Shown here: piece after piece, positions 10,714-40,302 of the stretch | Numbering within the stretch: position 1 is the first letter of the stretch | How the letters are laid out: every line of letters starts with the position of its first letter | DNA from: an uncultured archaeon | GTDB taxonomy: Archaea > Asgardarchaeota > Lokiarchaeia > Sigyniarchaeales > SOKP01 | Direction: 5' to 3' | NCBI GenBank assembly: GCA_964388035.1 | Contig: CAYLZE010000029.1 | Location: 1-49,350 of the forward strand | DNA length: 49,350 nt | The notes under the pieces: generated by a model | Seen by the model: the letters and a program-made list of their open reading frames with translations, nothing else | Database searches by the model: none | Told to the model about the DNA's origin: nothing | Translations under genes and position numbers: made by a program

Positions 10714-10811
10714 AAAACACTCATGAAAATAATCTATTTTTAACTTTGGTGTTTTAGATTAAAAAGAGAAATATACCATTTCAGAATTAAAAAAAAGAAA
10801 ATTTAAAAAAA

Positions 10812-11345
10812 TTACTTCAATTCACGTTCAAATACTTTAAAATCAGCTTGAGAATACAAGCAAAAGATTACTTCTTCAATTAGCGTGGTACCTTGTAGGT
10901 AATTCTTTGCGGTTGAGATCATTATTTTAGCACAGCGATCGATGGGATAGCCAAATATTCCCGTTGAAATTGCCGGAAAGGCAATAGTCTTTAAGTGATG
11001 TTCATCCATGAGCTTGAGACTATTTAATGTAGCATTTTTTAGTTTCTCATCCTCATTCCCTTCCCCCATTCTCGGGCCTACGGCATGTATTACGTATTTT
11101 GCTTTCAAGTTTCCTCCCGTAGTGATTACGGCACCCCCAACGTAAGTCCCACCAATTTTGTTGCATTCTTCCTGGATTTTTGATCCTCCTTTCCTCCGGA
11201 TTGCTCCAGCAACTCCACCGCCCATGATTAATTGGGAATTTGCTGCATTTACAATGACATCCGTGCTTAATTCCGTGATATCTCCCTTCACAAGTCGGAT
11301 CCTTGAATTTTTCACATTAATTTCTTGCATTCTTTTTTCCTCCAT
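10812..11345 (-). CDS. Macro domain protein (O-acetyl-ADP-ribose deacetylase / ADP-ribosylhydrolase)
   Basis: GDIT, IVNAAN, GGGVAGAI, VIHAVGP, FPAISTGIFGYP. Confidence 0.95.
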   Translation of the reverse strand: MEEKRMQEINVKNSRIRLVKGDITELSTDVIVNAANSQLIMGGGVAGAIRRKGGSKIQEECNKIGGTYVGGAVITTGGNLKAKYVIHAVGPRMGEGNEDEKLKNATLNSLKLMDEHHLKTIAFPAISTGIFGYPIDRCAKIMISTAKNYLQGTTLIEEVIFCLYSQADFKVFERELK

Positions 11346-11550
11346 TCGAATATTAAGAAAAAATCCGCTAAATATTTATCCTCACGGAGCTTTAAATACT
11401 TAGTGTTGATCCTTACCAAATTAAATATCACTTCAGGGGTTCATTACCTTCAATTTTCAATCAGAAATTTAATTATTTCCCCAGCATAGAAATAAGAAAA
11501 TAATAATTTTATACATGAAAAATGTAAAAAAGCAAGAAATAAAAAAAAAA

Positions 11551-12294
11551 TTAGGGCGTGTCAGGGGTTTCCATACCTTTTCCCAAAATTTCGTCCAGCT
11601 TTTTTCTATCTTCGTCAGATAACTTGGACATTGTCTCCATTTGTTGCTTCATTAAATCCATCATGAGTTTGCGCGAAATGATTTGGTTTAATACAGGAAG
11701 GGAAATGCGGATTCGGGTTAATTCATAATTCATGAGAATGGCGGTTTCTCTCATTTCCTTCAATTCTTCTTTAGTCATGCCTTCTTCACCGATTCCCGGA
11801 CAATCCACATCAACCACGCTATAATGTTTTCCATCAAATTCTAAAGGATAAGTGCGGCAACTTAAAGGGCGATTATCATAAACCAAACATTTTTTTTGCT
11901 CTGTATTATAGAGGGGACACTTTTCTTCAAGCAACATTTCAATAGGCGTTTCCTTAAACGGATCACTTGGAGTTTTTTCCTCATTTTCTTCTTTAGGTGG
12001 AGCCAAGGGCTTTAAGATAAGGTCAAAACTTCCATCAGGCTTGGTATATATTTCTAAATAGGGCATGAAGTTAGCAAGAACTCCATTTCTCGCCCACATT
12101 TCTAAATCCCAAAAGGTTATGGGAATAGGCCCTCTTGCGAGGCAACATTCATCGCAGCGGGTACATCTAAACGTGAATTTTGCCTTTTCTTTTTGGGAAT
12201 CCGCTTTTTCTTCGCACTTTTCTTCTTTTTCTTCTTTAACCGCTTCTTCTTTTACAGTTTCTTGATTTTCATTTTCATTTGTATTATCAGACAT
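11551..12294 (-). CDS. YkgJ family (CxxCxxCC) cysteine-cluster protein
   Basis: FRCTRCDECC, CPLY, CLVYDNRPLSCRTYP, CPG. Confidence 0.9.
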   Translation of the reverse strand: MSDNTNENENQETVKEEAVKEEKEEKCEEKADSQKEKAKFTFRCTRCDECCLARGPIPITFWDLEMWARNGVLANFMPYLEIYTKPDGSFDLILKPLAPPKEENEEKTPSDPFKETPIEMLLEEKCPLYNTEQKKCLVYDNRPLSCRTYPLEFDGKHYSVVDVDCPGIGEEGMTKEELKEMRETAILMNYELTRIRISLPVLNQIISRKLMMDLMKQQMETMSKLSDEDRKKLDEILGKGMETPDTP

Positions 12295-12440
12295 CTTATT
12301 TAGATCAGACCTTTTGTATTTTAGTTTTCAAATAGGGATATTGAATTTAATAATGCACTGAAAAAAAAAATTTCTATTTTTATTAATAATATGAATTCTT
12401 TATATTTCTCATAAATACTTAAAATAAAATAAAAAGATCG

Positions 12441-13529
12441 ATGTACATGATATTTGAAGAAGATTTTAAAATCATCAAAAAGCTTGCTGAAACCCAAAGC
12501 TGCACGGGCAATGAAGCAAATATCAGACAGCTAATAATTGATTTGGTTGAGGATTATTGTGATAAAATCGAAGTGGACGTGCTTGGTAATTTATTTTGCT
12601 ACATAGAGGGGAAAAAATCGGGAAGTGACACCAAAAAACGGGTATTATTAGATGCCCATCTTGATGAAATAGGATTCATGGTGCGGTTTATTGATAAAAA
12701 CGGTTTTATAAGATTTTCTTCTCTGGGAGGGCAGAATGCCAGGATTTTGCCGGGACAAAATGTAACTATTCATTCTAGCTCTGGAGAGGAGATAATGGGA
12801 ATCATTGCGGAAAAAGCAATCCATTTACTTCAAAAAGATGAAAGAACAAAGGTAACTAAGATAGTGGATTTATTCATTGATATTGGATTATCATCCGAGG
12901 AAGAGGTTAAGAAGCATGTTTCGGTAGGAGATTACATCACCTTAAAACAAGAATGCTATGCATTATTGGGCAACAATAGAATTGTATCTAAGGCATTTGA
13001 TGATAGAATAGGATGTTTTGTGCTAATTAGAACAATAATGGAGTTATCTCCTTTAAAGAAAGATTTGGATAAAGATATAATATTCTTGTTTGCGGCTCAG
13101 GAAGAAATCGGAGTAAGAGGAGCAACGGTGGGGGCATTCAAAATAAATCCTGATTTTGCAATCACCTTAGAGGTTACTCATGCAATAGATTATCCGGGAA
13201 TAAGTAAAGAAAAACATTATGATTGTTATCTGGGATGCGGAGTATCTATTGCTCTTGGTCCTAATTTTTATCCTAAGCTTACAAAGGCATTGATAGATAT
13301 AGCAAAAGAAGAACAAATTCCCTTTATTTTGGAAGCAGAACCATATCCTTCTCCTAATGATGCTAGGGCAATTCAAATGACAAGATCTGGTATTCCTTGC
13401 GCTTTAATTGCACTGCCCTTGCGCTACATGCATACTAATGTCGAGATGATAGAATATAAAGATGCTTTACATGCTATACAGTTAGTAAAATCTTTTCTTT
13501 TAAAGGAAATAAATTTCAAGTTGGATTAA
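12441..13529 (+). CDS. M42 family (TET) aminopeptidase
   Basis: DAHLDEIG, SKAFDDRIG, QEEIGVRGA, LRYMHT. Confidence 0.93.
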   Translation: MYMIFEEDFKIIKKLAETQSCTGNEANIRQLIIDLVEDYCDKIEVDVLGNLFCYIEGKKSGSDTKKRVLLDAHLDEIGFMVRFIDKNGFIRFSSLGGQNARILPGQNVTIHSSSGEEIMGIIAEKAIHLLQKDERTKVTKIVDLFIDIGLSSEEEVKKHVSVGDYITLKQECYALLGNNRIVSKAFDDRIGCFVLIRTIMELSPLKKDLDKDIIFLFAAQEEIGVRGATVGAFKINPDFAITLEVTHAIDYPGISKEKHYDCYLGCGVSIALGPNFYPKLTKALIDIAKEEQIPFILEAEPYPSPNDARAIQMTRSGIPCALIALPLRYMHTNVEMIEYKDALHAIQLVKSFLLKEINFKLD

Positions 13530-13675
13530 AGTAATAAATAGAAGGCTTGATTTTTAAACGGATGATAATTATTTAATTTCAATGTTTTTTATCCACATAA
13601 ATAAAAAAAATAAAATAATAGTAATCTTTCATGATCTATATTAAAGAATTCTTAAAGATTTAATATTACATCATC

Positions 13676-14761
13676 ATGAACTATTCAAATATTAAAAAAT
13701 TCCTTTTTTATTTTCTGATCACGTTTCCTTTTCTCTCCTTTTTATTAGGACTATTTTTGTCGCTCTCTAACGAAAATTTCAGTATCGCTTGGAATATTTT
13801 TTTCCTTTGTGTTTTATTGGCTTTAACCTTTTATATTTTATTTATTAGACAAAAACAAGGAGATGTACATGATTCAAGAATAGTGGGTCTCTATGGAACT
13901 TTTATTTGTATTAATTTGCTGTTTTGTTTTTCCATAGGATTTACTATACCTTTAATGGAATCCATTTCTCGTGTTAACATGGGAATTGTAATGATTCCCT
14001 TACTTACCGTATTAAATGCAATCATATTAAAGCAATTTAATTATCGCAATATGGGTCAAACGATTGAAGATAATTCCAAAGAGAAAGATAAAGGAATTCA
14101 AAATAAGAAAAAACTACCAGTAATCGAGTTTGAGGGAAAAAAATATAGTTTCACGGTAAGATCATTAGTTGTATTTGCTATTGGAGCCCCTTTACTCGCT
14201 TGGTTCACTTATTTTTTATTTGATTTACAAGTTAATTATTGGTTGCATGAAATTGTAGTCAAGCAGACCGTATTTGTTCTTAACCTACTTTTTAACATGG
14301 GTGTAAAAGGTGTGTATTATCCCGTTGGCAAGTATCAATGGTATTTTAGCATCCCTGGAAGACCAAATATTTATTTTGAAACCTTTTGTACGGGAATTCA
14401 AGCGATTAATGTATTTGTTGGAATAATTCTTTTTATCCCGCATTCTTTAAACAAGGAAAATAATGAAGATATCATCTGGAGGAAGACAAAAGCTTTAGTA
14501 ATATCTTCTGTCATTTTCTACTTTGTGAATATCCTCCGAATGGTGATACAGTTATATTTATACTATATCGGTTATGCTTGGGATGACATTCACGTCTCTA
14601 TAAGTGCTGCCAGCTCTTTTATCGCTGCAATAATTGTCCTTTTACTTCATAGATGGATCCCCGAATTTATAATATCCATTATTTTTGCAGGTACCTTGAT
14701 TTATCGAAGATTAAAGGCTAAATCAAAAGAAGAAGAAATAAAAACCAATTCGAGTGAATAA
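13676..14761 (+). CDS. Archaeosortase/exosortase family transpeptidase with an extra N-terminal 4-TM domain
   Basis: Catalytic-triad-like motifs FCTG (Cys), VNILR (Arg) and WDDIH (His) in a multi-TM frame. Confidence 0.85.
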   Translation: MNYSNIKKFLFYFLITFPFLSFLLGLFLSLSNENFSIAWNIFFLCVLLALTFYILFIRQKQGDVHDSRIVGLYGTFICINLLFCFSIGFTIPLMESISRVNMGIVMIPLLTVLNAIILKQFNYRNMGQTIEDNSKEKDKGIQNKKKLPVIEFEGKKYSFTVRSLVVFAIGAPLLAWFTYFLFDLQVNYWLHEIVVKQTVFVLNLLFNMGVKGVYYPVGKYQWYFSIPGRPNIYFETFCTGIQAINVFVGIILFIPHSLNKENNEDIIWRKTKALVISSVIFYFVNILRMVIQLYLYYIGYAWDDIHVSISAASSFIAAIIVLLLHRWIPEFIISIIFAGTLIYRRLKAKSKEEEIKTNSSE

Positions 14762-18379: not shown

Positions 18380-19885
18380 TTAACTTAAATACTTAATTAA
18401 TAAATCCGCTGTTTTCTCTATGAATTCTGGTAAATATTCTTTGATTTTTCCTTTCTTATTTTCATCATCCATTAAACACATTAAAAACATTGGACTTTCT
18501 GCGATTTGAATTCCTTTCACAAGAATGATGAATTCTGCAATTTTAAAAACGGCTTCATCTTTTTTAAGAGTTTTGAATTCAGAAAAGATTTTCCAAATTA
18601 TCGCAAATTGAGGAGCGGTAAATTCCCATACATTTCTAAGCTCTTGTGATAATAATTCTTCCCCCGAGTTAAGTTGATGCCAAAACTTTTTTTTGGCTTT
18701 CTCTGAATAGTAATCTGCCAAAACCAACCCATCAATATTTAAGAGGAGACTAATTGAAATTCCACTTTTAGTAGATAATTCTTTTAAATTACTTTGAATT
18801 TTTTCCCGATATGGACTTAATTTTGAAATACCCGAAGAAAAAGCTCTTAATATGCTAAAAAGAGAAAAAATACTAGTTAAATAAATTTCAGGTTCGCATT
18901 CTAAACGACATGCTTCCATCAATCGTGATTTAATCCTCTTGATATTTTCATTAATTTCTTTGGTTCTAAGGATGTCGGGATCCGCCTTACTTAATATGAA
19001 AAGGATGGGTGGTTTTTGAACAAATTCCTCTGAAATTTTATTTATAATTTCGTTAAGATAAAGAATACTTTGATTAAAACGAGCATGGTCTTGAATATCG
19101 ATAAAGTAAAATAAAATATCTGTCTCATATAAATAGATTTGAGGTTTCTTCAAATAGCCTTCTCGTGAACGCTGTTGCCCACCTAAATCCCATAAAAACA
19201 TGGTAGTACCGCCAAAAGTTTCCAATGTTGTAATGCTTGCACCAAGCGTGGGTTTTAGGCCAATTAATTTCGAGAATTTCTTATCTAAAGCTAATAGGAA
19301 TGATGTTTTTCCGGAATTGTCTAATCCTGCGAAAAGGAACTTTAATTTTCTGGGTTGTGCAATTTTCATTAAAGGCACTTTTTCCATTTCGAGTAATTGA
19401 GAAAAAAGTGACTCGAAAAGGGGGGAAATTTCTTCCTTTTTTTTTATTCCATCTTGAAGTTTCAGATCTAATTGGTTACTGAATGTTTCAATAAGGAGTT
19501 TTATCCGGTTATTATTATTATATAAGAAGTTCCTGTTTTTTTCGTCAAGGAATAGGGTTATAGTAGAAGGGATTAAGAATTCGTCTTTAATTCGATTAAT
19601 TAAATGGAAAAAGGCGATTGCCATTAACTTGAAATCTGGAAAAGGTATGATGGCAAAATGGCGCATGTCCTTAAACTTTTCTTTTTCCACGAGTATTTTA
19701 TCATCAATGATCAAGCTTAAACTTTTAATAGATATCTGAATGTAATCCAAGTATGATAACCGAGAACCTGTTTCATGAACACCTTCCTCCCCTCCGGGAA
19801 ACATATAAATTGGTTCGGGACCTAATTCTTGAATAGTGCTGAAAACTATTCCGCTGAACACGGATTTCTGTATGAATTTTTCCAT
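18380..19885 (-). CDS. Longin/uDENN-like domain + Rag/Arf-like GTPase + roadblock fusion (paralogue of 35498..36913)
   Basis: N-terminal FSTIQELGPEP; G1 GLDNSGKT, G2 PT, G3 WDLGGQ, G4 SKAD, G5 TSIF; C-terminal LLLNIDGLVLA roadblock-like strand. Confidence 0.85.
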   Translation of the reverse strand: MEKFIQKSVFSGIVFSTIQELGPEPIYMFPGGEEGVHETGSRLSYLDYIQISIKSLSLIIDDKILVEKEKFKDMRHFAIIPFPDFKLMAIAFFHLINRIKDEFLIPSTITLFLDEKNRNFLYNNNNRIKLLIETFSNQLDLKLQDGIKKKEEISPLFESLFSQLLEMEKVPLMKIAQPRKLKFLFAGLDNSGKTSFLLALDKKFSKLIGLKPTLGASITTLETFGGTTMFLWDLGGQQRSREGYLKKPQIYLYETDILFYFIDIQDHARFNQSILYLNEIINKISEEFVQKPPILFILSKADPDILRTKEINENIKRIKSRLMEACRLECEPEIYLTSIFSLFSILRAFSSGISKLSPYREKIQSNLKELSTKSGISISLLLNIDGLVLADYYSEKAKKKFWHQLNSGEELLSQELRNVWEFTAPQFAIIWKIFSEFKTLKKDEAVFKIAEFIILVKGIQIAESPMFLMCLMDDENKKGKIKEYLPEFIEKTADLLIKYLS

Positions 19886-28733: not shown

Positions 28734-29642
28734 TCACTTAGAAAGGAGTTCTTTTAATTCTCTTTTAAAGATTTCAACTGCGGTTTCATTAAATTGATCG
28801 TTTTCTTTCAATATTACTAAATAATATGGGAGCTCGCTCCCGTCGAGAAGGATCGGCTTGAATAGGAAAAACTTATTAAAATGTTCTATTACCATTTCTT
28901 CCATGGAATTTTCAACATCTTCATCCGTAACAACAAATGCATCATTTAAGGTTAGCAAATAGGGCGTGGAGCTATAGAATATTTTTTTCGTATCTTCATT
29001 TTTATAATGTTCGCCTACAATAAGGGAATTGTCATCTAATAAAATTGCTCCATCTGCTGCCATTGCCTTAGCCAATAATTCTATTTGGCTATTTATTTCG
29101 GTCGATTTAGGATGGATTTCTAAGAAGATTTCAGATATGATTTTCATTAATTTAGCAAAATCGTAAATGGAAGTTTTGTAGAAGTATAATTTTTCGTAGT
29201 GCAAGTCGTTGCGAAGTTTATGCTCAATTTCCTCGCACTTTTTTTCAATTTCCATCTTTTGGGAATCGAATAGAAGAGGATCGTACTTATGAAAGAAAAT
29301 ATGTATCGTGGGTTGGAGCTCTAACTCTGTATATTTTTGGACCAGTTCCTTTAAATAATCTAGCGATTCGGGAATTCTTTCTTCATTTTGAATGTCAATG
29401 GTGTAAATGCAAATGGCCGTATTATCAAGATATTTATCAGGATTACTAATATATGTTATTCGATAAGTAGATTGCCCCCCCAAATCGTGCTCAGTAATGC
29501 TTTCTCCAAAAAATGTGAAAAATCTTCTTTCAATTCCTTTTGTTGGTTTCAAATAAGCGATTTTAGAAAATTCTCTTTGAAGTGACAAAATGATTGAACT
29601 TTTTCCTGCATCATCTAATCCTAAAAAAGTGATTTTTTTCAA
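28734..29642 (-). CDS. Rag/Gtr-type small GTPase with C-terminal roadblock domain (copy A)
   Basis: GLDDAGKS, PT, DLGGQ, Rag-type HKYD (G4) and TSIYD (G5); C-terminal ADGAILLDDNSLIVG. Confidence 0.88.
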   Translation of the reverse strand: MKKITFLGLDDAGKSSIILSLQREFSKIAYLKPTKGIERRFFTFFGESITEHDLGGQSTYRITYISNPDKYLDNTAICIYTIDIQNEERIPESLDYLKELVQKYTELELQPTIHIFFHKYDPLLFDSQKMEIEKKCEEIEHKLRNDLHYEKLYFYKTSIYDFAKLMKIISEIFLEIHPKSTEINSQIELLAKAMAADGAILLDDNSLIVGEHYKNEDTKKIFYSSTPYLLTLNDAFVVTDEDVENSMEEMVIEHFNKFFLFKPILLDGSELPYYLVILKENDQFNETAVEIFKRELKELLSK

Positions 29643-30121
29643 GTAATATTCTCGTGCTCTTTTAATTTAAGACATTAGAAAAACTTTAAATTAGATTGCT
29701 CTTCTCGGAATAAAATAAATATTCGAACAATTTATTTTTTTCTTTTTTAAATATTAAAAGTGAATAAAGTATGGGAAAATAATAAAGCAAATCTAGCAAG
29801 AGCAAGAATATCTTTCTATTACTCGAATAGTGTAGAATTGAGTACTTGTTGGCTTTATTTCCTCACATTCTCTCTCCCACAGTATTAATTTAATACACCA
29901 TCAAAATTCATCGAAGTTCGAGGATCTTGCTTTTTTATTACCCGATCTGATAGGAAGAAATTATCTCCTTTTCTGGAAAAACTAATATATTCTATAAATT
30001 AAAAATTAATCAAAAACGCAATATGAAATTATTAATACAAAACTTTATTTTTTAATGTTAGCATGTATTTAAAAGTGATATTATTTAATTCATGTGAACT
30101 TTATAAAACTTAGAAATAACA

Positions 30122-31081
30122 ATGAGCATCCCTTACCTTAACGAGAAGAAAAAAGAGTCCGAAGAAGCGGAAAAGATTCTTTTTACCGGATTGGATAATG
30201 CGGGGAAGACTACCATTATCTATGCATTACAAAGGGAGTTTTCAAAGATAGCACTCCTAAGACCCACGAGGGGGGCTCAGAGAAGGGTCTTCGACTTTCT
30301 GGGCAAGGAGATCGGCGAATGGGACCTTGGAGGACAATTAAAATACCGGATCAGTTATCTCAAGAATCCGAGTAAATATTTTGACAAAACTTCAATTTGT
30401 ATTTACGTCATAGACATCTTGGCAAAAACTCGATACCGAGAATCGATAGATTATTTGAAAGACGTGTTGGAAAAATTCAAGGAATTATGCATTTCGCCTC
30501 CTGTTTACATCTTGCTTCATAAATATGACCCCGCTTTAATTAAATCGGCAACTAATAAAATGAAAACTCTTGAACAGGATGTTAAAACAACCATAAGGCG
30601 AGAGATTTCCTATGATAAAGTATTTTTTTACAATACCACAATTTTCGATCTGCCTCAAATCTATAATGTCGTGTCTGAAATCTTTTTACAGCTATATCCG
30701 AAATCCGAATTAATTGATAAAATTATCAGAGAGTTCGCAATTAAAGTGCTAGCGAATGGGGTGGAAATCATAGATGATAATTCTTTAATAATTGGATCTT
30801 ATTATGATGGAGATGAAACGAAGCGGTTAATCTCTCGCTCCACGCCTTATTTCCTGACTCTAAACGAATCCTTTAAAAAGGCAGAAGCAATGGGAATTAC
30901 CTCAGAAGAAAAGAACCATATTTTGGTACAACGATTTCGTAAATATTTTATATTCAAAGAAATTTCCTTAGGAAATGATTCTCCACCTTATTTTCTGTTA
31001 ATTCTTAAAAGTAATCCGAATTATAACGTTGAAGATTTCGATGCTCTCTCAAATCTATTAAAAGAAATATTATATACATGA
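30122..31081 (+). CDS. Rag/Gtr-type small GTPase with C-terminal roadblock domain (copy B)
   Basis: GLDNAGKT, PT, WDLGGQ, HKYD, TTIFD; clear paralogue of copy A (LQREFSKIA, DDNSLI, STPY). Confidence 0.88.
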   Translation: MSIPYLNEKKKESEEAEKILFTGLDNAGKTTIIYALQREFSKIALLRPTRGAQRRVFDFLGKEIGEWDLGGQLKYRISYLKNPSKYFDKTSICIYVIDILAKTRYRESIDYLKDVLEKFKELCISPPVYILLHKYDPALIKSATNKMKTLEQDVKTTIRREISYDKVFFYNTTIFDLPQIYNVVSEIFLQLYPKSELIDKIIREFAIKVLANGVEIIDDNSLIIGSYYDGDETKRLISRSTPYFLTLNESFKKAEAMGITSEEKNHILVQRFRKYFIFKEISLGNDSPPYFLLILKSNPNYNVEDFDALSNLLKEILYT

Positions 31082-31272
31082 AAAAAAGATCAAAATGCAT
31101 TGAGCATTTTATCTTTTATAAGAATGTGGATAAAGGACATTGAATTAACTTAAATTTATATTTCTGAAACGTCTTCTTATTCATAAGCAAGTTAAATTAA
31201 TATCATTATTACTTGCACAAATATAAAGAAGATTTTGTTTTTAAACGAGAATATAGCAAGGAAATTGTAGTC

Positions 31273-32481
31273 ATGCGTATCTGTCCAAATTGCGGTGCCA
31301 CTAACTCAGAAGCTGATGGTAACGTGTGTCGAAAATGCGGAGCTCTCCTTCCTATTTCCTCTCAGCCACCACGGATGAGGATTTCTTTTGGGAAAAAGAA
31401 AGATAAAGCAGAAACTCAAATTCAATTTCCAAATAATACATCCGGGATTGAAATTGACCATCTTTCAAATCAAATAACCGCTGAGGCAAAATTTTTCGCC
31501 ACTACTAAAAAAAAACCTTCACTTCAAGAGAGTAATGAATTTGAATTAAATGAGATCCCTAAAGAAATGGAGACTGAATCCGGGAATCTTGAACAAGATG
31601 AAAAAACCAATCGGCAAATGCAGCAAGATGTAGATACTTTCCCCCCAACACCTACTGAGAATAGCCAGACTGGAGCGTATTTAAAAGAAATTCCAGTACG
31701 ACCTTTTGAAGGGTCCTTAATTACTAAAAAAGGAGTATTTGGATCCCCACGAGTTAGACAATCTGAGAATCAAAACTTAGAACAAGCTACAGATTCCAAT
31801 CTTGTTGCAGATTCCGCTAAATTTTTGGATAAAGAAGTATCTAGTCCCGGAATTTCAAATAAACGTCCTCAAGTATCTTCATTACCTAAAAAGAATATTT
31901 TAAAAGAGGATGCTCAACCAGCTATAAATGGATCTAAATCGCCCAAAAATGTCAATTCAGATGAATTAATCAATGACATGCAAAATGTACTTTCAGATCT
32001 TTCAAGTAAATTAGATATACCCGAGGAAGAAATAAAAAGTAACGCACAGCACGTAAAGGCAGTACCATCTAAGCACGACCTTGCTCCCAACAGCATGAAT
32101 GAGATCTTAGAAAATTTATTATCCTTGGACCTGCATATTGAAGCTGCCGCCATCTTAAAAGAAGATGGAAGCATTTTAGCTTCCGGAATTTCCAGCATGA
32201 TCTCTGACTCATTATTTGGGACAATCGGGAAAAACTTATCTTCTATTGGTAATGATATAATTGAATGGTTAAATGCTGGACCTTTAAGCAACATTTCTAT
32301 CAAGGGTCAGCACGGAATTCTAGATGTTGCTCCCATTGATAGAAGCGTCCCTGAATTGGAGAATTTAATCTTGATAATTTTTTCCCATCCTAAAGCTAAA
32401 AGAGGTATTATTAGGCTGGCAATAGGGATCGTGAAGAAAAATATCATGGAATATTTAGGAATCGATAAATATACTCCTTAA
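31273..32481 (+). CDS. Zinc ribbon + disordered linker + roadblock/LC7 domain protein
   Basis: CPNCG...CRKCG at the N-terminus (probable start ATG 31273), low-complexity middle, C-terminal IEAAAILKEDGSILAS...RGIIRL roadblock. Confidence 0.8.
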   Translation: MRICPNCGATNSEADGNVCRKCGALLPISSQPPRMRISFGKKKDKAETQIQFPNNTSGIEIDHLSNQITAEAKFFATTKKKPSLQESNEFELNEIPKEMETESGNLEQDEKTNRQMQQDVDTFPPTPTENSQTGAYLKEIPVRPFEGSLITKKGVFGSPRVRQSENQNLEQATDSNLVADSAKFLDKEVSSPGISNKRPQVSSLPKKNILKEDAQPAINGSKSPKNVNSDELINDMQNVLSDLSSKLDIPEEEIKSNAQHVKAVPSKHDLAPNSMNEILENLLSLDLHIEAAAILKEDGSILASGISSMISDSLFGTIGKNLSSIGNDIIEWLNAGPLSNISIKGQHGILDVAPIDRSVPELENLILIIFSHPKAKRGIIRLAIGIVKKNIMEYLGIDKYTP

Positions 32482-33281
32482 ATAATTCTTTTTTGACGAT
32501 AAATCTTACTAATCTTTATAATTCTTAGATATGGGATATTACATGTAATTTCTTGAAGAAATGCATTTAATCTATAAATAGAAACCAAAGGTACATCTTT
32601 AGCATTAAAACGCGAGCCATTTTCTTCTAAAGTGACGATAATTGGAATTAACATCAAGGGAAAATTAATTTTAGTGCGTGATGAAATTCCAATAGTTGAT
32701 TGAAGTAGACTTGAAAAGGTCTCGGGATTTTCTTTTAAGGCAAGGATTCTCTGAAGTTGAAGATTAGCGGCCTTATTAATAGAACTGAAAGAATCCTTTC
32801 TTTTCCATTGTTTTGCATCAATACAGAGAACATGAGGATTTTTAAAACCTATAACATCAATCTCATATCTTTTTTGTTTGGTTGCATGCTTAAAGGTTGA
32901 TTTATCGGAAAAATAGAAATTTTGGGTGGTGAAATACCCATTTATCTTTAATATTTCTTGGATTAAGGTCTCAAAATCATGGAAGCTTAACAAATTGGAC
33001 AAATCCCTGAGATCTTTCTGCAGAAACTCCATGGCTTCTAAAATAAAGGATATTTTATTGATTGCAACATGATTCCACCGCTCTCTTTTTAAAAAAGGAA
33101 GTTCATCAATGAGCAAGGCACATTCTTGCTCATCCAAGGTTTTAAAAGATTTGATCTTTGAAATTTCATGCCACACTTCATTTAGTTCTGCATCAGATTG
33201 AGCAAGGATGTGAAATATTTCCGAAAATACTTCCTTAATTCTAATGGAAGTGGAATACTTGACCATGTATTTTTCATTCAT
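32478..33281 (-). CDS. PD-(D/E)xK nuclease (Mrr/restriction endonuclease-like)
   Basis: FETLIQEIL...GY, YEIDVIG, IDAKQW. Confidence 0.8.
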   Translation of the reverse strand: MNEKYMVKYSTSIRIKEVFSEIFHILAQSDAELNEVWHEISKIKSFKTLDEQECALLIDELPFLKRERWNHVAINKISFILEAMEFLQKDLRDLSNLLSFHDFETLIQEILKINGYFTTQNFYFSDKSTFKHATKQKRYEIDVIGFKNPHVLCIDAKQWKRKDSFSSINKAANLQLQRILALKENPETFSSLLQSTIGISSRTKINFPLMLIPIIVTLEENGSRFNAKDVPLVSIYRLNAFLQEITCNIPYLRIIKISKIYRQKRII

Positions 33282-33486
33282 TTAATGAATTTTAAATAAG
33301 TAGAGGGTCATTATTTAGAAATTTATGAGAATAATTCGTGGTCATGGACGTTTTTTAGGACATTTCCTATTTTTTTAAACTATTCCCGATAAAATATACT
33401 TAAAAATTACCTAATCCATTAATAATAGTGTTTTTTAAGATTATCATGTATTTATCTAATGATAATTGAATTAAAAAGAGGTTGGG

Positions 33487-35319
33487 TTGATGAACGATTA
33501 TAACGGGGAATTCTTACCTAAAATTTTACCTAAGGTTTTTCGTACCGAAGGGGATATGGTCGATTATGATCCAAATAAAATCTTTATTAGCTTGATTAAA
33601 GAAACAAGAATGGAAGAAATGGATGCTAACAAGATTACTGAATTAGTTACCCGCAGAATTATCAGTTCAGGAATCAAATTCCTTTCAGGACCCCATATTC
33701 GGGAAATCGTATGCTCTATTTTATCGGAACAACATTATGAAAAGGAAAGAAAATTGTACACCAGGATCGGCATGCCGCTCATGGATTATGAAGATATGTT
33801 GGAAAATCCACCAAGAAATTTAGAAAGGTATCCCGAAAGAGTCCATCAAATTGCTGCGAATCAATTATCTGTGGAATATACTCATTTAAGAATTCTCAAT
33901 GAAGAGGAATCTCAAGCGCATCTTTATGGAGAAATTCATATTCATGGTTTAGAGTATTTCGATCAAAGACCTACGAGTCAAAATTGGGATCCCAGATTAA
34001 TTCTCAAATATGGTCTTCCTCCCATTCAAGCTTATCAAGAATGTTGTAAGTATAATCCTGCCAAAAATCTTGATGCAGCCATCTTACACTTGGCAAAATG
34101 GTTAGGAATGACCTCTCAAGAATTTAATGAACTTCAAGGGTATAATCTAATCAATATTTTTTTAGCTCCCTATATCATTGGATTAAAGCGGGAACAAATC
34201 GCACCAAAAATAGAAACCTTAATTTACGAATTAAATCAATTAAATCTCCTTACCGGTAGAAAAATTCCCATGACCTATCTTTCAACCCTACCTAGAATTA
34301 TTAATCCTCTCATGAAGGTTCCAGCCATTGGACCTAATGGTAGGGAACTCGACACTTATGAAGATTACCAAGAGGAAAGTTTAAATTTATTTAATATTAT
34401 AAGTGAAGTTTTCAAGAAAGGAATAAGTAATGGAAAACCCTTCACAAATCCAAAACATGTTATATTCATGGATTCACTCTATTATAATAATGCTAATGAT
34501 GAGGCATTTGAAGAGATATGGGAAGAAATTATCGGGCCTCATGTCCCTATTCTTATAAATTACAGAGAAAATGATATTTCAACAACCAATCCCTTTTTTT
34601 CTCCCTCAAAGACTTTATATAATCAAGGGATTCTTCAAAAAATTACTCTTAATTTACCTCGATATGCGTACATTTCAAGGGATGAAAGCGAGTTTTTTAA
34701 GGTGTTGAAGGAGAAAGTAAAATTGAGCACGGATATCTTTGAAAAAAAAAGAGAAATTATTAAAAAAAGGTTAATAAATAAACAATTACCTTTATGTAGT
34801 GGAGAATATGAAACTGGAAAAACAATCTTCAATTTAAATGAGCAGAAATCCTGTATCGGATTTATTGGCTTGAATGAAACGGTTAAAATCCTTACAGGAG
34901 AAGAACTTCATGAGTCAGAAAATGCCTTCCAGATGGGATTGAATGTAATAAAGACTATTGATGAATATTGCCATCAATTATCTTCCAAAAAAGAACATTC
35001 GCTTGCATTATTTGATTGTAACTCCTCAAAAGTACGTGCCAGGTTTGCACGACTTGATCTGAAGCATTTTTCCAAAAAAGCAAAGCTTATCATGAAAAAT
35101 TCTGAACCACAATATAGTGCATCCAGTAAATTTAAAGATCATCTTGCCATGAATCCAGAGTTAATAATAAAGAAACAAGGAGAATTTCATGAAATCATTA
35201 AAAATGAAGGTATTGAATACCTAGCCCTTAAAATTATTCAAAATATTCCGGATAAATTTAGGGATTTGGCTCTTACTGCTCTAAATCATTCGAAATTAAA
35301 TGCTTATACGTTTTACTAA
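33487..35319 (+). CDS. ATP-cone-containing class III ribonucleotide reductase (NrdD) homologue lacking the glycyl-radical domain
   Basis: N-terminal ATP cone; AHLYGEIHIH, ITLNLPRYA, IGFIGLNE core motifs; no C-terminal CxxC/CxxC or RxxGY. Confidence 0.82.
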   Translation: MMNDYNGEFLPKILPKVFRTEGDMVDYDPNKIFISLIKETRMEEMDANKITELVTRRIISSGIKFLSGPHIREIVCSILSEQHYEKERKLYTRIGMPLMDYEDMLENPPRNLERYPERVHQIAANQLSVEYTHLRILNEEESQAHLYGEIHIHGLEYFDQRPTSQNWDPRLILKYGLPPIQAYQECCKYNPAKNLDAAILHLAKWLGMTSQEFNELQGYNLINIFLAPYIIGLKREQIAPKIETLIYELNQLNLLTGRKIPMTYLSTLPRIINPLMKVPAIGPNGRELDTYEDYQEESLNLFNIISEVFKKGISNGKPFTNPKHVIFMDSLYYNNANDEAFEEIWEEIIGPHVPILINYRENDISTTNPFFSPSKTLYNQGILQKITLNLPRYAYISRDESEFFKVLKEKVKLSTDIFEKKREIIKKRLINKQLPLCSGEYETGKTIFNLNEQKSCIGFIGLNETVKILTGEELHESENAFQMGLNVIKTIDEYCHQLSSKKEHSLALFDCNSSKVRARFARLDLKHFSKKAKLIMKNSEPQYSASSKFKDHLAMNPELIIKKQGEFHEIIKNEGIEYLALKIIQNIPDKFRDLALTALNHSKLNAYTFY

Positions 35320-35497
35320 CACCAAATAAATGCTATTTTATGAATTTTATAATGAAATGATGAATTCCAAAATTTTATATAAGTTAAATTTACTTAATCT
35401 TTAAAGAGCTTCAATTATTTCATGTCGTGTAATTGAGTTTTTATGGCGTAATTTAAATAGATGAAACGTGATAAGCATCGTTTAACAGAAATTAAAT

Positions 35498-36913
35498 ATG
35501 AGCTTAAATAAAGATAATAAAATCATTCAATCGATAATCTTAAGCATTTTCGATGTGAACGGACCAACTCCCATAAATATCTGGCCTGCTACCCTTAGTG
35601 ATACGGATGGGCTTTTAATTGCTATTAAGACCATAAGTTTACTGATGGGGGAAAAAATATATCAATCCGGAACGGATACTGAAGGAGTAAATTATTTTGG
35701 TATTCTTCCCTTTCCTGATTTAGGGTTAAATGGCTTAACATACTTTTTTTTGATTCCCGATAAAAAAGCAAGAGGTAATGCCAAAGCAGCAACGATTACC
35801 ATCCTAATTAATCAAGAAAATAGCACTTTTTTTTACGATAATATGAAATACTTGCGAATTATAATGGATGCAACGGCAACTAAAATTCAGAAAACGCCCG
35901 ATTATGAATTTTATAAGAAGCCAATGGAAGATTTGCGCGAAGAACTCTTGGAATACACCAAAAAACTCAAGGACCCATTTTCTTCTAATAGAAAAATTAA
36001 AATTCTATTGAGTGGACTAGATCAAGCAGGAAAGACAAGTTTCTTGTTAGGGGTAAAAAAAAAGTATTCCGAAATCATCAAATCCATGCCCACAAAGGGA
36101 GTGTCTCGGTCTTCGGAGGAAATTTTTGCGGAACAAAATTCCCAAATCTCGGTGTGGGATATGGGAGGGCAAAGTAAATATAGAGAAAAATATATAGACC
36201 AATCAAAAGCTTATTTATACAATATTGATTTATTATACTATTTTATAGATGTACAAGACATAATAAGAACGGATGAATCTCTTTCACTTTATCAAACGAT
36301 CATAGAAAAATTAGTAGAGTTGGACGAGTATCCGCCTATTGTAATATTATTAACCAAATACGATCCAGACTTGAGAAATTCATCAGAAATTCAAAAAAAT
36401 GCAAGGAAAATCAAACAAAATGTGCAAAAATCCTCTCAAAACTTTTTTGCGAAAGTATTCGAAACGTCCATTTTTGATCAATGGTCTTTGATATCGGCAT
36501 ATTCCTTTGGTCTCTCTCAATTAAGTCCCAACAGAACACTATTTAGAAATCAATTAAAACAACTGGCTCATGACACTAGATCCAGCGCTTTACTACTATT
36601 GAATGAAAATGGTATCATTTTGTCTGATTTTGCTAAAGATCAAATATCTGGACGAGTATTTGAAATTTCTGCGCCTCATTTCCAAACCCTCTATAAAACT
36701 TTCAAGGAATTCAAGATGCTCGAGCAAGACTTTATTGTTTCATCAGGGGTTACGGATGAAGGAAAAAACGTGGTCTTCAAAAAAATTAAAGTTGATAAAT
36801 ATAATTTATATTTACTCTTTTTTCTAGATAAGAGCTCGGGAATAAACAGAATTAACAATTCTATTGGTAAATTTTCGGAAAATATTAAATCCATAATAAA
36901 GGTCTACATATAA
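35498..36913 (+). CDS. Longin/uDENN (folliculin/SMCR8-like) domain + Rag-like GTPase + roadblock fusion
   Basis: ILSIFDVNGP and FLIPDKKARG; GLDQAGKT, PT, WDMGGQ, TKYD, ETSIFD; LLLLNENGIILS. Confidence 0.86.
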   Translation: MSLNKDNKIIQSIILSIFDVNGPTPINIWPATLSDTDGLLIAIKTISLLMGEKIYQSGTDTEGVNYFGILPFPDLGLNGLTYFFLIPDKKARGNAKAATITILINQENSTFFYDNMKYLRIIMDATATKIQKTPDYEFYKKPMEDLREELLEYTKKLKDPFSSNRKIKILLSGLDQAGKTSFLLGVKKKYSEIIKSMPTKGVSRSSEEIFAEQNSQISVWDMGGQSKYREKYIDQSKAYLYNIDLLYYFIDVQDIIRTDESLSLYQTIIEKLVELDEYPPIVILLTKYDPDLRNSSEIQKNARKIKQNVQKSSQNFFAKVFETSIFDQWSLISAYSFGLSQLSPNRTLFRNQLKQLAHDTRSSALLLLNENGIILSDFAKDQISGRVFEISAPHFQTLYKTFKEFKMLEQDFIVSSGVTDEGKNVVFKKIKVDKYNLYLLFFLDKSSGINRINNSIGKFSENIKSIIKVYI

Positions 36914-37116
36914 TATCCTTTTATCTATCCCATCCTCTCTTTTCTAATTTTACTCTTATCTTTTTTGAAAGTTTAAGGAGATACCACAAAAACACCTTCT
37001 TTGAATTGAATTAAAAAAGCATGTTTAACTGGTTTTTAAAAGAATTAAAAATCTATAAAAATATAAACCAAAATTTCCATTATAATTCTAAATAATAGCA
37101 ATATCTTTCATTAATC

Positions 37117-37761
37117 TTGATTTATAAGTTGTTTTTAATTGATTCAGAAAGTGGTATTTCTCTATTAGAAGTAAACATCAAAGAATTTCAAACGTCCGAT
37201 TTCTCTAAACGAATTGTTTTTCCCAATTTCTTTAAAGCTATTAATGAAACCATTGATAATATTCATACCGCCATGGCGAAAGGGAGAAAGGTAAATGAAA
37301 TGATACGTCTTATTGAATCAGAAGATTCGACGATCATTATCTATTATCATCCCCTATCTAGAATTTTATTTTGCTCGATATCTGATGCTGATGATGACAT
37401 AAGTCAACTGAAAGAAGTTATCCAGAAAATAGGCATGAGATTTTGGAAAAAACATCAATCGGATATTGACATTTTTAGAGCAACAACCGAGAAGACCAGA
37501 TTTTCCAGTTTTAAAATTGATATTGAAAATTTAACCATGGGAGGGAGGATTGGAGAAAACTTTCCCAAATTATTATTAATTAAAAATGTGTTAGAAAAAG
37601 TTCTGTCAATGGGCATAATTGATGATATAGATTATCAAGTTGCTTTAAAGTGTACGGGAGATAATTCTTCTCTTAAAATTGCCCGCCTATTAGATAAAAA
37701 AAGAAATGAGGTTCAGGAAATCCTAAAGAAACTAAAAGAGTTAGATATCATTTCGTTATAA
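37117..37761 (+). CDS. Longin-like domain + C-terminal winged helix protein
   Basis: LFLIDSESGISLL beta-hairpin and ILFCSISD strand typical of longins; C-terminal KIARLL...VQEILKKLKELDII helix-turn-helix. Confidence 0.7.
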   Translation: MIYKLFLIDSESGISLLEVNIKEFQTSDFSKRIVFPNFFKAINETIDNIHTAMAKGRKVNEMIRLIESEDSTIIIYYHPLSRILFCSISDADDDISQLKEVIQKIGMRFWKKHQSDIDIFRATTEKTRFSSFKIDIENLTMGGRIGENFPKLLLIKNVLEKVLSMGIIDDIDYQVALKCTGDNSSLKIARLLDKKRNEVQEILKKLKELDIISL

Positions 37762-37935
37762 GAAATAATAAGATTTTTCATATTAATTCCTATTTGTTCC
37801 TTGTAGTAGAAAGAATCGGAGGATAAACAGAACTCAAGGTTGAAAAGTGCTTCTCTTTCTTAAATCAATAGAAAAAAATAAAAACTTTCCATTTTTATTT
37901 TACTTGTTTTTTAAAGTGAAGAAAGGTTTCGTGAA

Positions 37936-38592
37936 ATGTCAGAAAAAATAATTGCTATCGTTAAATCTCCTTCTCAAGATAAACATTTACGAGAGGGAAA
38001 TGGGTTTTCGTTGGCTGAAATTCAGAAGGCGGGAAAAACAGTGAGCATGTTAGAAGCATTAGGGATAAAAGTGGATTATCGTAGAAAATCCGTGCATCAA
38101 TCTAATCTAGAAAAGTTGAATACCTTAATACCAAGTGAAAAAAAAGCAGTAAAAAGAGAACCCTTCAAACCTAAAGAAAAGAAAAAGAGAGCTCCTAAAC
38201 TTAAAGTTGAAAAGATCGTTGAAGAAGAGAGCAAAATAGAGGAGCCTAAGAAAGAGAAGATTAAAAAAGAGAAAGCTAAAAAGGAAAAACGTCCAGCGAA
38301 GAAAAAAGAAGTTAAAAAAGAAAAACCTTCCGAGAAAATAGAGAAAAAAGAAGAAATAATCGAGCACGACGTGATCGAAGAAGCCAAGGTCCCCGAAGAA
38401 GAACCCATTGCTCTTACAGAACTTACTGGTTGTGGTCCAGCAACTGCAAGTAAATTCGCCCAAATAGGAATTAGCAGCATCCAAGACTTAATAGAGGAAG
38501 ATCCGGAAGAATTAGTGTTGCTAACCAAGGGCGTATCGTTAGAAAGAATTAAAGAATGGCAAGATGAAGCAAAAAAGTTACTGGAAAGTTAA
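37936..38592 (+). CDS. rpl13e: 50S ribosomal protein L13e fused to a Lys/Glu-rich linker and HhH domain
   Basis: REGNGFSLAEI...GIKVDYRRKS...N (L13e); C-terminal LTELTGCGPATASKF (HhH). Confidence 0.85.
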   Translation: MSEKIIAIVKSPSQDKHLREGNGFSLAEIQKAGKTVSMLEALGIKVDYRRKSVHQSNLEKLNTLIPSEKKAVKREPFKPKEKKKRAPKLKVEKIVEEESKIEEPKKEKIKKEKAKKEKRPAKKKEVKKEKPSEKIEKKEEIIEHDVIEEAKVPEEEPIALTELTGCGPATASKFAQIGISSIQDLIEEDPEELVLLTKGVSLERIKEWQDEAKKLLES

Positions 38593-38645
38593 AAAAATAG
38601 CCAAAAAATCACTTTCTTTTGTATAAAATACTAATTTTTGCATTT

Positions 38646-39626
38646 TTAAATGCAAAATTCTCTATCTTTAAAGAATTCTTCAAAGCACTCACAACAAGGA
38701 ATTCCACAAGTAATTTGGTAGGTACCATAATCATTAACATTCCTCTCAACTTCCATTAATTCTAACAGTTTTTCCTTAATTTTCTTTTTTCGACTGTCTC
38801 GGCTGAAAAAGAATTTTTCAAGATAACTTCCATGATTTTCTTTTTTACATATAGGGCAGGTTGAATAGAAAATCAAAAAAGATCTAAATTCTTTTTTCTC
38901 TTTTTCGGATAAAGATTTAAACCGATAATTGGTTCCTCTCTGAAATTCTCCAATAAGTTCTGTTAATCTGTGAATTTCTAATAGTTGTTCAGCACGTAAT
39001 TTAATATCATGTTCTTTCGAGAACTGATTTGCATCTTGATTGGGGACCATCCTACTTGATGAAGATCTCAAGTTAGGGTCAGCATTTAAAAAATTTAATC
39101 GTTTGTGTTCTACTATTTCTCGATATTTCCCGTAAAAATATTCAGCAAGTTGCTGGAAGATTTTTGTTCTAAATCCTAAATTTTGTATTGAACCAAGAGA
39201 ATAACCCATTAAATTGTAGTAATGAACAAATCTTTCAATTTCTTCTAAAGAAACCTGCCAATCTAAATCAGATTTTGTACCTACTAAAAATAGTGGAATA
39301 CTATCATTAACTAAACGAATAGTTCTAATCCAATGAGGTAAGTAATCAAGGGTAAGCCGGTTAGATAGATCAAAAACTAAGATGGTGCCATTAACTCCTT
39401 GAAAAAAGTTTGGTGTTAAATTCATGAATTCAATTCTACTCTTCATATCCCATATCTGAAATACAAAATTTATTTCTTCATAGAGCAAATTCACGATTTG
39501 AAATGAAACCCCAATATTACAATTCCCTTCATAAAACTGTAGATTATTAAAGTTGCCCCCATTAAGGAAAGTAGATTTCCCAACATGTGGAAACCCAACG
39601 GCTAATATCTTAAAAACACTTGCCAT
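38646..39626 (-). CDS. Degenerate Rab-like GTPase with C-terminal Cys-rich zinc-binding domain
   Basis: FKILAVGFPHVGKST, IGVSF, FQIWD, ILVFDL, LVGTKSD; C-terminal CPIC...H...GIPCCEC. Confidence 0.8.
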   Translation of the reverse strand: MASVFKILAVGFPHVGKSTFLNGGNFNNLQFYEGNCNIGVSFQIVNLLYEEINFVFQIWDMKSRIEFMNLTPNFFQGVNGTILVFDLSNRLTLDYLPHWIRTIRLVNDSIPLFLVGTKSDLDWQVSLEEIERFVHYYNLMGYSLGSIQNLGFRTKIFQQLAEYFYGKYREIVEHKRLNFLNADPNLRSSSSRMVPNQDANQFSKEHDIKLRAEQLLEIHRLTELIGEFQRGTNYRFKSLSEKEKKEFRSFLIFYSTCPICKKENHGSYLEKFFFSRDSRKKKIKEKLLELMEVERNVNDYGTYQITCGIPCCECFEEFFKDREFCI

Positions 39627-39810: not shown

Positions 39811-40302
39811 ATGGAGAAAACAAGTTACATTTACCAGAAAACAGAATCAAATATCGTTATCAATAAAATGCCCGTTTGGTTCGAGGAAGCCACAACAGAA
39901 GGAGATAACAAGAATGGATATATATCATGGAAAACACCCAATCAATATGATGAGATTTGGGGGTCTTTAGGCAACATGAATCTAGAATATTCTAGCCTGG
40001 AACGAGGTAAATTCTTTCATCCCAAGGAGGTACAGAGAACTATTGACCAATTTAATGCCATTAATGTTATCATATCTAAGAAGGAAAATGATTGGATCAA
40101 CTCTCACGAATTTACAATATGGTATGGAACCCGGAGAAAATTAATTCGAAGACGTTATTATAAAGAAAATTCCATTCATGGCATTTTTTATTGCGATGTG
40201 ACAGAACGTGTATTTTCAATTCATGCCGCAATAATTGAGGATCATTATGAAGGATTTAGACCATATTTGTTAAATTGTTTTAATTCAATCGCCTGTCATT
40301 AA
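39811..40302 (+). CDS. Hypothetical protein
   Basis: 163-aa ORF with normal composition; no confident family. Confidence 0.65.
   Translation: MEKTSYIYQKTESNIVINKMPVWFEEATTEGDNKNGYISWKTPNQYDEIWGSLGNMNLEYSSLERGKFFHPKEVQRTIDQFNAINVIISKKENDWINSHEFTIWYGTRRKLIRRRYYKENSIHGIFYCDVTERVFSIHAAIIEDHYEGFRPYLLNCFNSIACH

Follow-up and report, generated by a model that had tools for sequence, protein, structure and literature searches.

A neighbourhood of Rag-type GTPase, longin and roadblock genes conserved within one order of Promethearchaeia

In eukaryotes, the C-terminal domains of Rag GTPases dimerise, and so do the longin domains of FLCN-FNIP and NPRL2-NPRL3. Proteins of related build are already described from Asgard archaea. 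Tran et al. 2024 (PMC10933270) report GTPase-roadblock and longin-GTPase-roadblock proteins in Candidatus Prometheoarchaeum syntrophicum MK-D1, together with one Rag pair in an operon for which a heterodimer is predicted, and state that the GTPases of MK-D1 as a rule do not share operons with genes for roadblock or longin proteins. A RagA-like GTPase of an Asgard Lokiarchaeota, LokiRagO, is titled homotetrameric in Protein Data Bank (PDB) entry 8yl2. Asgard longins with an arginine finger and a GP motif, the latter defined in the same work, are reported in PMC12290439 (Traffic, 2025), where the partner GTPase family of these longins is left open. The present analysis concerns a neighbourhood of such genes in a 49,350-nucleotide stretch of DNA (the window), which is contig C29 of the archaeal genome G000 (5.47 Mb in 211 contigs, estimated 96.7% complete), and in particular g6, a gene that fuses a longin domain to a Rag-type G domain and a roadblock domain.

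By sequence, the relatives of G000 are metagenome-assembled genomes of Promethearchaeota / Promethearchaeia, that is, Loki-lineage Asgard archaea. In the labels used here, f1 is the family of the window genome, f2 its sister family, and f3 and f4 are further families; G stands for genomes and L for related loci. Genes g1 to g10 follow each other along the window (table 1): two Rag-type GTPase genes (g1 and g2), a zinc-ribbon protein (g3), a nuclease-like protein (g4), an NrdD-like protein (g5), g6, a longin/winged-helix protein (g7), the ribosomal protein eL13 with an added domain (g8), a Ras-like GTPase (g9) and a conserved protein (g10). A fourth Rag-type gene, g0, shares the architecture of g6 and is located 15.6 kb upstream of it. 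Domain calls were made with Pfam on the open reading frames (ORFs) of the window, with curated cut-offs of 22 bits for Gtr1_RagA, 23.3 for Folliculin, 24.9 for L13e and 25.8 for ATP-cone. An earlier note on positions 28734-39626 had proposed that eight of these genes form one signalling switch; all genes that it listed are present as ORFs, and Pfam agrees with most of its domain calls.

On balance, we are inclined to read the region as a vertically inherited neighbourhood of one Promethearchaeia order, in which GTPase-signalling genes of described types stand among unrelated genes, and not as a single operon or obligate module.

Gene order in the neighbourhood and at a control locus

The neighbourhood was followed in 80 species-level Promethearchaeota loci centred on g7, and the presence of a gene was counted only where the flank sufficed. 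Around the orthologues of g5, in nine genomes of seven genera, the order is R2-g3-g4(-)-N-g6-g7-eL13-g10-methyltransferase(-), where R2 denotes g2 and N the NrdD-like g5. The consensus of the 80 loci reads AIRS, SLOG, (ThrC), R2, g3, g4(-), N, g6, transglutaminase(-), g7, eL13, g10, methyltransferase (MT)(-) and a CxxCxxCC protein(-). In detail, g6 is positioned beside g7, on its upstream side, in 67/67 loci, eL13 follows g7 in 77/77, and g10 follows eL13 in 73/75. The g4 gene is found in 60/61 loci, g3 in 53/56, R2 in 47/52 and the NrdD-like gene in 56/63. Gene order is largely retained in f2 as well. Median identity across the block is highest for g6 (62%) and g7 (61%), against 43% for eL13.

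In 56/80 loci, a transglutaminase-like gene (PF01841, ~430 aa) of opposite orientation separates g6 from g7. It appears to be ancestral and to have been lost in the window and in several other clades. Examples are located at 12429-13721(-) of L024 and 10661-11950(+) of L035, and the gene is also found beside g6 in f3 and in G032, a genome of f2.

The earlier note had named a lack of conserved gene order across Asgard genomes as the outcome that would speak against it, and order is indeed conserved in the 80 loci. The significance of this conservation was measured against one unrelated control locus, that of the canonical NrdD gene on contig C23, with 18 neighbours scored. Among relatives of the same family, the control keeps 9-14/18 neighbours versus 6-13/18 for the test locus, and at the distance of f2 the respective values are 6-8/18 and 7-8/18. 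Nine consecutive genes of the control locus are retained in 8/8 genomes, and the housekeeping genes that flank the test locus show synteny equal to that of the GTPase genes. Since the control is equally collinear, conserved order in this order-level clade is not evidence of coupling.

The layout also differs from that of an operon. Both strands are used, median gaps between co-oriented genes are about 125-192 bp (250 bp at the widest), and extra genes are interposed in many genomes. Unrelated genes, that is, g4, the transglutaminase-like gene, eL13 and the methyltransferase, are interleaved with the rest. In 56 loci, g5 is the gene immediately before g6 and has the same orientation, the median gap between the two being 161 bp.

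Strong Rag-type matches number ~19 in the window genome and longin-type matches 33, next to at least 54 small-GTPase ORFs. If genes were placed uniformly at random, a group of three Rag-type genes within 7 kb would have a P of ~0.005, and a group of four small GTPases within 11 kb a P of 0.008-0.03. The earlier note had named chance clustering of abundant small GTPase genes as an outcome that would speak against it. The clustering exceeds uniform placement; this null is too generous, because g1 and g2 are a tandem duplication and further GTPase clusters exist in the genome on C2, C18 and C4. Tandem duplication explains part of the excess. The cluster on C2 (~31-43 kb of the contig in G000) is denser, with ~seven small-GTPase ORFs in 12 kb, among which several are Rag-type (PF04670, 58-90 bits), and may be a stronger example of tandem expansion or of a functional cluster.

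Three of the eight parts named in the earlier note are not stable members of the locus. The g9 gene is found nowhere else, g1 is confined to one genus, and the NrdD-like gene is missing from f2 and from two clades of f1. Similarly, the linkage of the Rag-roadblock gene g2 to g6 breaks down in G032, f3 and f4, where the two are 42-250 kb apart or on different contigs. In G032 (4.36 Mb, single contig) the block is split: R2 ... SLOG-AIRS-g0 is located at 2.93 Mb and g4-g6-(Arf-like GTPase)-transglutaminase-MT-CxxCxxCC at 3.01 Mb, the latter half having no g7, eL13 or g10. A 206-aa ORF beside g6 in this genome was considered as a diverged g7 and rejected, as it is the Arf-like GTPase. Arf-like and Ras-like small GTPases are inserted in the split halves (10900-11520(-) of L137 and 9572-10129(+) of L138), as g9 is in the window, and the region seems to have received small GTPase genes more than once.

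Families f3 and f4 have one g6-type gene each, and the best R2-type gene is 42 kb off (G027), 250 kb off (G033) or on other contigs. In f3, g6 remains adjacent to the transglutaminase gene. In f4, its neighbours are an HD-domain protein, a DUF1464 protein and a pterin-binding protein, and a stand-alone longin of the g0 type (169-179 aa), which lacks the conserved Arg described below, is found ~1.4-1.9 kb from g6 in 3/3 genomes with flank (G033, G027 and G029). No g0-type fusion was found in the f4 genomes searched. The only association that recurs beyond the collinear range is that of an Arg-bearing longin-Rag-roadblock gene near an Arg-less longin; it does so in one extra independent lineage, which is not proof.

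The longin-Rag-roadblock fusion and the Rag-type GTPases

An alignment (A5) of 25 N-terminal longin domains, 20 of the g6 type (4 from f2) and 5 of the g0 type, separates the two by a single residue. The GP motif (residues 22-23 of g6, between the first two strands) is invariant in 25/25. An Arg in the context ARG[N/Q/K], which is Arg92 in g6, is present in 20/20 g6-type domains and in 0/5 of the g0 type. Three g6 proteins from f4 keep both GP and Arg. Pfam Folliculin is matched by 20/25 of the aligned domains; in g6 itself the match is borderline (residues 80-146, 22.8 bits against the cut-off of 23.3).

The longin domain of g6 was modelled with AlphaFold2 (AF2) at a predicted local distance difference test score (pLDDT) of 84.7. 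The top structural match of the model is a Lokiarchaeota longin (8yqg, Z 18.1). Longins of GTPase-activating protein (GAP) complexes have VIA Z scores from 10.3 to 12.6: Lst4 12.6, C9orf72-SMCR8 12.6, the FLCN complex 12.1, GATOR1 10.6, FNIP2 10.5 and the SEA complex 10.5. Longins of SNARE, AP and TRAPP type reach Z <= 9.1, and the Foldseek ranking agrees. By this model, the fold is nearest to the eukaryotic GAP-complex longins. Arg92 is placed in the loop that joins strands 77-87 and 95-105 of the model, inside the region of the Folliculin match; profile and single-sequence PDB searches for an alignment of this loop to FLCN chains returned no FLCN. The fusion of an Arg-bearing longin to a Rag-roadblock protein, as the earlier note had it, agrees with the Gtr1_RagA match, with GP and the invariant Arg, and with the GAP-type longin fold. 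Among the genomes searched, the full longin-GTPase-roadblock architecture was found within this order only, and in none of the eight other Asgard families sampled.

The Rag-type genes g1, g2, g6 and g0 score 71.6-85.9 bits with Gtr1_RagA. Scores with Arf follow closely, so that the G domain by itself is Rag/Arf-like. Compared with 8yl2, g2 matches over residues 8-313 (E 3.9e-81) and g1 over residues 2-279 (E 7e-63), whereas a profile of g6/g0 orthologues covers residues 20-342 of 8yl2 (E 4e-47). The same profile matches residues 7-278 of human RagA, that is, the G domain and part of the C-terminal roadblock. For g1, g2 and g6, a roadblock domain at the C-terminus is backed by the full-length 8yl2 matches and by the RagA matches that extend past the G domain. 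Both g1 and g2 show a P-loop of GxxxxGKS type (GLDNAGKT in g2), DLGGQ and HKYD. By these matches, the four genes are assigned to the Rag-type GTPase-roadblock proteins, a kind already crystallised, and the two (g1 and g2) that had been recognised from the DNA alone keep that identity. A literature search on 8yl2, 8zla, 9m28 and LokiRagO found nothing relevant.

The g1 gene is a genus-level duplicate of g2, and the two are recent paralogues: g1 occupies this position in the same genus only (G001) and is missing from all 80 loci. The g0 gene, aligned with g6 in A2 as well as in A5, is syntenic with AIRS-SLOG in f1, f2 and G032. The degenerate small GTPase proposed for g9 is likewise recovered by Pfam Ras, with an intact P-loop, a G3 that reads WDMKSR and a Cys-rich C-terminal segment. 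None of ~100 related loci has g9 at this position; it is a species-specific insertion, outside the conserved block.

The NrdD-derived protein and the remaining neighbours

The g5 protein matches Pfam NRDD over profile positions 5-499 of 562 (6.8e-60), and its ATP-cone match is weak (18.2 bits against 25.8). The canonical NrdD of the same genome is encoded at C23:41306-43441 (711 aa). Canonical paralogues have the strand motif RPFCQ, a finger loop with a QCCR Cys pair, the zinc site CPxC...CPxC and SR[IV]TGYYS. In the alignment with them, g5 and its orthologues have the Cys of RPFCQ replaced and the finger loop of ~25 residues deleted, and they end before the zinc site and the glycyl-radical loop (RxxGY). 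Because the strand Cys, the finger-loop Cys pair, the zinc site and the radical tail are lost, g5, judged from its sequence, cannot be a radical ribonucleotide reductase (RNR). This is in accordance with the earlier note, which had described an ATP-cone NrdD lacking radical machinery.

The two parts of the protein have been conserved differently. In the N-terminal ATP-cone region, median pairwise identity is 76% among g5 orthologues and 70.5% among canonical NrdD, and the N-terminal region of g5 is near-identical to that of the canonical NrdD on C23. In the barrel, the respective values are 44% and 84%. The contrast of 76% with 44% indicates that selection keeps the regulatory domain and not the catalytic one.

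In a quick IQ-TREE tree of g6, in which f2 branches outside f1 and the branch of L036 is very long, the earliest branch of f1 has the NrdD-like gene, whereas f2 and two nested f1 clades with otherwise intact loci do not. It was probably gained at the base of f1 and then lost at least twice, and it is a late, dispensable addition to the locus. No description of an NrdD-type pseudoenzyme in Asgard archaea was found in the literature.

Other divergent NrdD-like proteins were noticed. Three genomes of f2 (G037, G030 and G034) encode a full-length NrdD-like protein at the canonical NrdD locus (L032 4274-6397(-), L033 8706-10934(-) and L034 8689-10767(-)), with 6-8/18 neighbours common with C23. In place of the radical glycine it has another residue (SKITDYY or SKITNYY), and neither active-site Cys position is retained; by sequence, the ancestral locus appears to hold a second NrdD pseudoenzyme of independent origin. 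Intermediate forms that keep the RPFCQ Cys and have no finger loop or radical tail are found outside the GTPase neighbourhood at L026 8935-10809(+) and L029 623-2497(+) (G017 and G006).

The AF2 model of g7 (pLDDT 66.8) has two domains. Residues 1-146 resemble synbindin (Z 12.0) and the longins of VAMP7 and Sec22 (~11), the best matches, AP sigma included, being at Z 10.5-12. Residues 151-214 match the winged helix of TFE-alpha (Z 7.7, root-mean-square deviation (rmsd) 2.1 over 62 residues). The match to GATOR1 chain 8fw5_B has Z 9.5 and an rmsd of 13.3. Neither the GP motif nor the Arg is present in g7 (alignment A1). The longin/winged-helix build suggested from the sequence is in agreement with the model; a kinship specifically to NPRL2/3 does not hold by the same model, because the GP motif is missing and the nearest folds are of TRAPP, SNARE and AP type. 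A second full-length longin/winged-helix paralogue of g7 is encoded at C23:12956-13669 of G000. Distant g7-like matches in 285/301 genomes of the phylum (alignment A4) were set aside, as they probably represent the C23 paralogue and not g7, the strong ones having no Rag neighbours.

The g3 protein consists of a C4 zinc ribbon, a variable low-complexity linker of ~250 residues and a conserved C-terminal domain of ~125 residues (alignment A3). Zn_ribbon_3 was found in 8/9 orthologues, and this half of the zinc-ribbon/roadblock description stands. The C-terminal domain is probably a roadblock/LC7 domain, with weak support from sequence: the match to the Robl_LC7 protein 7f8m has an E of 0.018, Pfam Robl_LC7 was found in 1/9 orthologues, the hhalign probability with the g6 roadblock is <1%, and the nearest named atlas clusters are Robl_LC7 (score 0.90).

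In the case of g4, a PDB sequence search gave no match. The gene stays beside g6 in G032, G036 and G038 and is its divergent neighbour where the NrdD-like gene is absent. The g8 gene is the sole eL13 (PF01294) match in the genome, in which eL13, as in the L13e-HhH of the earlier note, is joined to a helix-hairpin-helix (HhH) domain, here through a Lys/Glu-rich linker. The eL13-HhH fusion occurs also in f2 (L139). For g10, there is no Pfam match, and the atlas gives unnamed archaeal clusters only.

Table 1. Genes of the window and stand-alone longins of f4, with the basis of each assignment
Feature	Position	Strand	Basis
g0, longin-Rag-roadblock, twin of g6	18380..19885	-	Pfam Gtr1_RagA 8.7e-20; outside 28734-39626
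g1, Rag-type GTPase + roadblock	28734..29642	-	Pfam Gtr1_RagA 3.7e-22; PDB 8yl2
g2 (R2), Rag-type GTPase-roadblock, LokiRagO-like	30122..31081	+	Pfam Gtr1_RagA; PDB 8yl2
g3, C4 zinc ribbon, linker, probable roadblock/LC7	31213..32481	+	Zn_ribbon_3; orthologue alignment
g4, weak Mrr_cat, PD-(D/E)xK nuclease-like	32478..33281	-	Pfam E 0.0025, below cut-off
g5 (N), NrdD-derived predicted pseudoenzyme	33487..35319	+	Pfam NRDD 6.8e-60; paralogue alignment
g6, folliculin/NPRL2/SMCR8-type longin + Rag G domain + roadblock	35498..36913	+	Pfam Gtr1_RagA; AF2; alignments
g7, longin + C-terminal winged helix	37117..37761	+	No Pfam family; AF2 + structure search
g8, eL13-HhH	37936..38592	+	Pfam Ribosomal_L13e 30.7 bits + HHH_5
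g9, Ras-family, degenerate G3, Cys-rich C-terminus	38646..39626	-	Pfam Ras 2.5e-17
g10, 163-aa protein, conserved	39811..40302	+	Present in 73/75 loci
Stand-alone g0-subfamily longin, f4 (L141)	12066-12605	+	
Stand-alone g0-subfamily longin, f4 (L142)	12550-13059	+	
Stand-alone g0-subfamily longin, f4 (L145)	9476-9985	+	

Competing readings and comparison with known systems

Under the reading of an inherited neighbourhood, g6 would be a self-contained switch with its own regulator. Its folliculin-type longin would probably be a GAP with an arginine finger for a Rag-type G domain, which would belong to g6 itself or to its partner in a dimer, and the dimer would be built through the roadblock and longin domains, by analogy with eukaryotic Rag, FLCN-FNIP and NPRL2-NPRL3. 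The likeliest partners would be the nearby Arg-less longins, that is, g7 and g0 in f1 and the stand-alone g0-type longin in f4. A second GTPase-platform pair may be formed by g2 and g3, with its linkage to g6 lost outside the collinear range. The conserved ATP-cone of g5 suggests a nucleotide-binding, non-catalytic role, which is more likely to concern ribonucleotide reductase or dNTP regulation, for instance by pairing with the canonical NrdD, than the GTPases. As far as the evidence goes, eL13-HhH, g4, g10, the methyltransferase and g9 would be bystanders.

Several points weigh against this account. The proposed RNR-linked role of g5 is read from the usual behaviour of pseudoenzymes. The equation of Arg92 with Arg164 of FLCN is tentative, being drawn from the location of the Pfam match and the class of fold rather than from a residue-level superposition of structures. 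Outside f1 and f2, the pairing of g6 with an Arg-less longin is found in one family (f4; three genomes of two genera), and G032 keeps g6 with no g7 close beside it.

A reading in which all neighbours are bystanders, kept together by slow rearrangement in a genome rich in GTPase, longin and roadblock paralogues and with no special cooperation among them, is a serious though clearly less probable contender. Collinearity at the control locus equals that at the test locus, Rag-type, small-GTPase and longin-type genes abound in the genome, with other clusters on C2, C18 and C4, and the small GTPases inserted differ between lineages, g9 here and Arf-like and Ras-like ones in G032; the general separation of GTPases from roadblock and longin genes in MK-D1, as given by Tran et al. 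2024 (PMC10933270), is in the same direction. Against this reading, g6 has a longin of its own subfamily close by in f4 too, where all other neighbours differ, the best conserved proteins of the block are g6 and g7, and the same types of domains are fused within g6, which indicates that these domains do cooperate.

The whole model of the earlier note is improbable. It joins the Rags, a roadblock scaffold, a longin GAP with its partner and an ATP-cone pseudoenzyme into one nutrient or nucleotide switch, a precursor of Rag-Ragulator-GATOR/FLCN coupled to a ribosomal protein gene. All the domain classes it needs are present, most genomes of the family retain the gene order, and g5, with a strongly constrained ATP-cone region and lost catalysis, directly precedes g6 on the same strand with a short gap in 56 loci. 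Yet g5 is absent from f2, from the f3 and f4 loci and from two clades of f1 while the rest persists, g9 and g1 are lineage-specific, R2 and g3 part from g6 in G032, f3 and f4, and synteny equals the background. The claim of one switch is thus partly supported: the reading of domains protein by protein and the recurrent proximity of g6 to an Arg-less longin stand, and the locus is not a demonstrated single switch, its synteny being that of the background and three of its members unstable. Equally speculative is a Rag/Ragulator/longin-GAP-like complex of g2, g3, g6, g7 and g0, in which the Arg finger of g6 would switch the G domain and, in f1, g5 would report (d)ATP, as a pre-eukaryotic nutrient-sensing GTPase circuit; we regard it as a long shot. 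It is also hardly likely that g5 is a decaying, functionless remnant whose presence in the locus is meaningless. The loss of every element of radical chemistry, a barrel identity of 44% versus 84% in the canonical paralogues and the loss of the gene in at least two clades would fit such decay, but the ORF of ~600 aa is intact in 56/63 species-level loci and its ATP-cone region, at 76%, is conserved as in the active enzyme.

The component types of the locus are already published and their domain architectures are known. Three points are new. One is how far the conserved neighbourhood extends, along with a control by which its conservation proves to be of little informative value; another is that an Arg-less longin is found near g6 again in a second lineage without collinearity; the third is the combination of a conserved ATP-cone with a diverged barrel in the NrdD-derived protein. 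Tran et al. 2024 (PMC10933270) did not succeed in matching Asgard GTPases to their regulators from genome layout. The fusion in g6 points to Rag-type GTPases as partners of the Asgard GP/Arg longins, a question raised by PMC12290439, and the neighbourhood, taken with the observation in f4, narrows the candidate partners to a few: g2, g3, g7, and g0 or the stand-alone longin without Arg. The synteny control calls for caution where similar claims are made, as gene order alone carries little functional information in this clade. With its conserved ATP-cone and gutted active site, g5 is a clean candidate for a nucleotide-binding pseudoenzyme, judging by its sequence.

Compared with class III ribonucleotide reductase NrdD with an N-terminal ATP-cone, g5 is a clear paralogue without the strand Cys, the finger loop and its Cys pair, the CPxC...CPxC zinc site and the RxxGY loop. 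Compared with Ragulator/LAMTOR and MglB platforms, g3 has a roadblock-like C-terminal domain and its gene is placed directly after a Rag-roadblock gene; unlike Ragulator/LAMTOR, it carries a zinc ribbon and a long disordered linker in place of a LAMTOR1-type wrapping subunit, heterodimer sets are not evidenced, and its roadblock assignment is weak by sequence.

The g1, g2, g6 and g0 proteins share the architectures of the Rag-like proteins of MK-D1, of LokiRagO (8yl2) and of LokiRagM (8zla/9m28). Whereas eukaryotic Rag is an obligate heterodimer of two paralogue classes that acts on TORC1, the nearest homologue here, 8yl2, is titled a homotetramer, and g1 is just a duplicate of g2. In the available text of the MK-D1 account (PMC10933270), a conserved multi-gene neighbourhood and the Arg/GP status of longins are not described. 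With the FLCN/SMCR8-type longins of Asgard archaea (PMC12290439), g6 has the GP motif in common, and its conserved Arg may correspond to their arginine finger; fusion to a GTPase is not mentioned there. The longin of g6 is structurally nearest to those of FLCN-FNIP, GATOR1 (NPRL2-NPRL3) and C9orf72-SMCR8, and it carries the GP motif and a conserved Arg that is a candidate arginine finger; it differs from these complexes in having no DENN or other C-terminal GAP-complex domain, its longin being instead fused in cis to a Rag GTPase and a roadblock domain.

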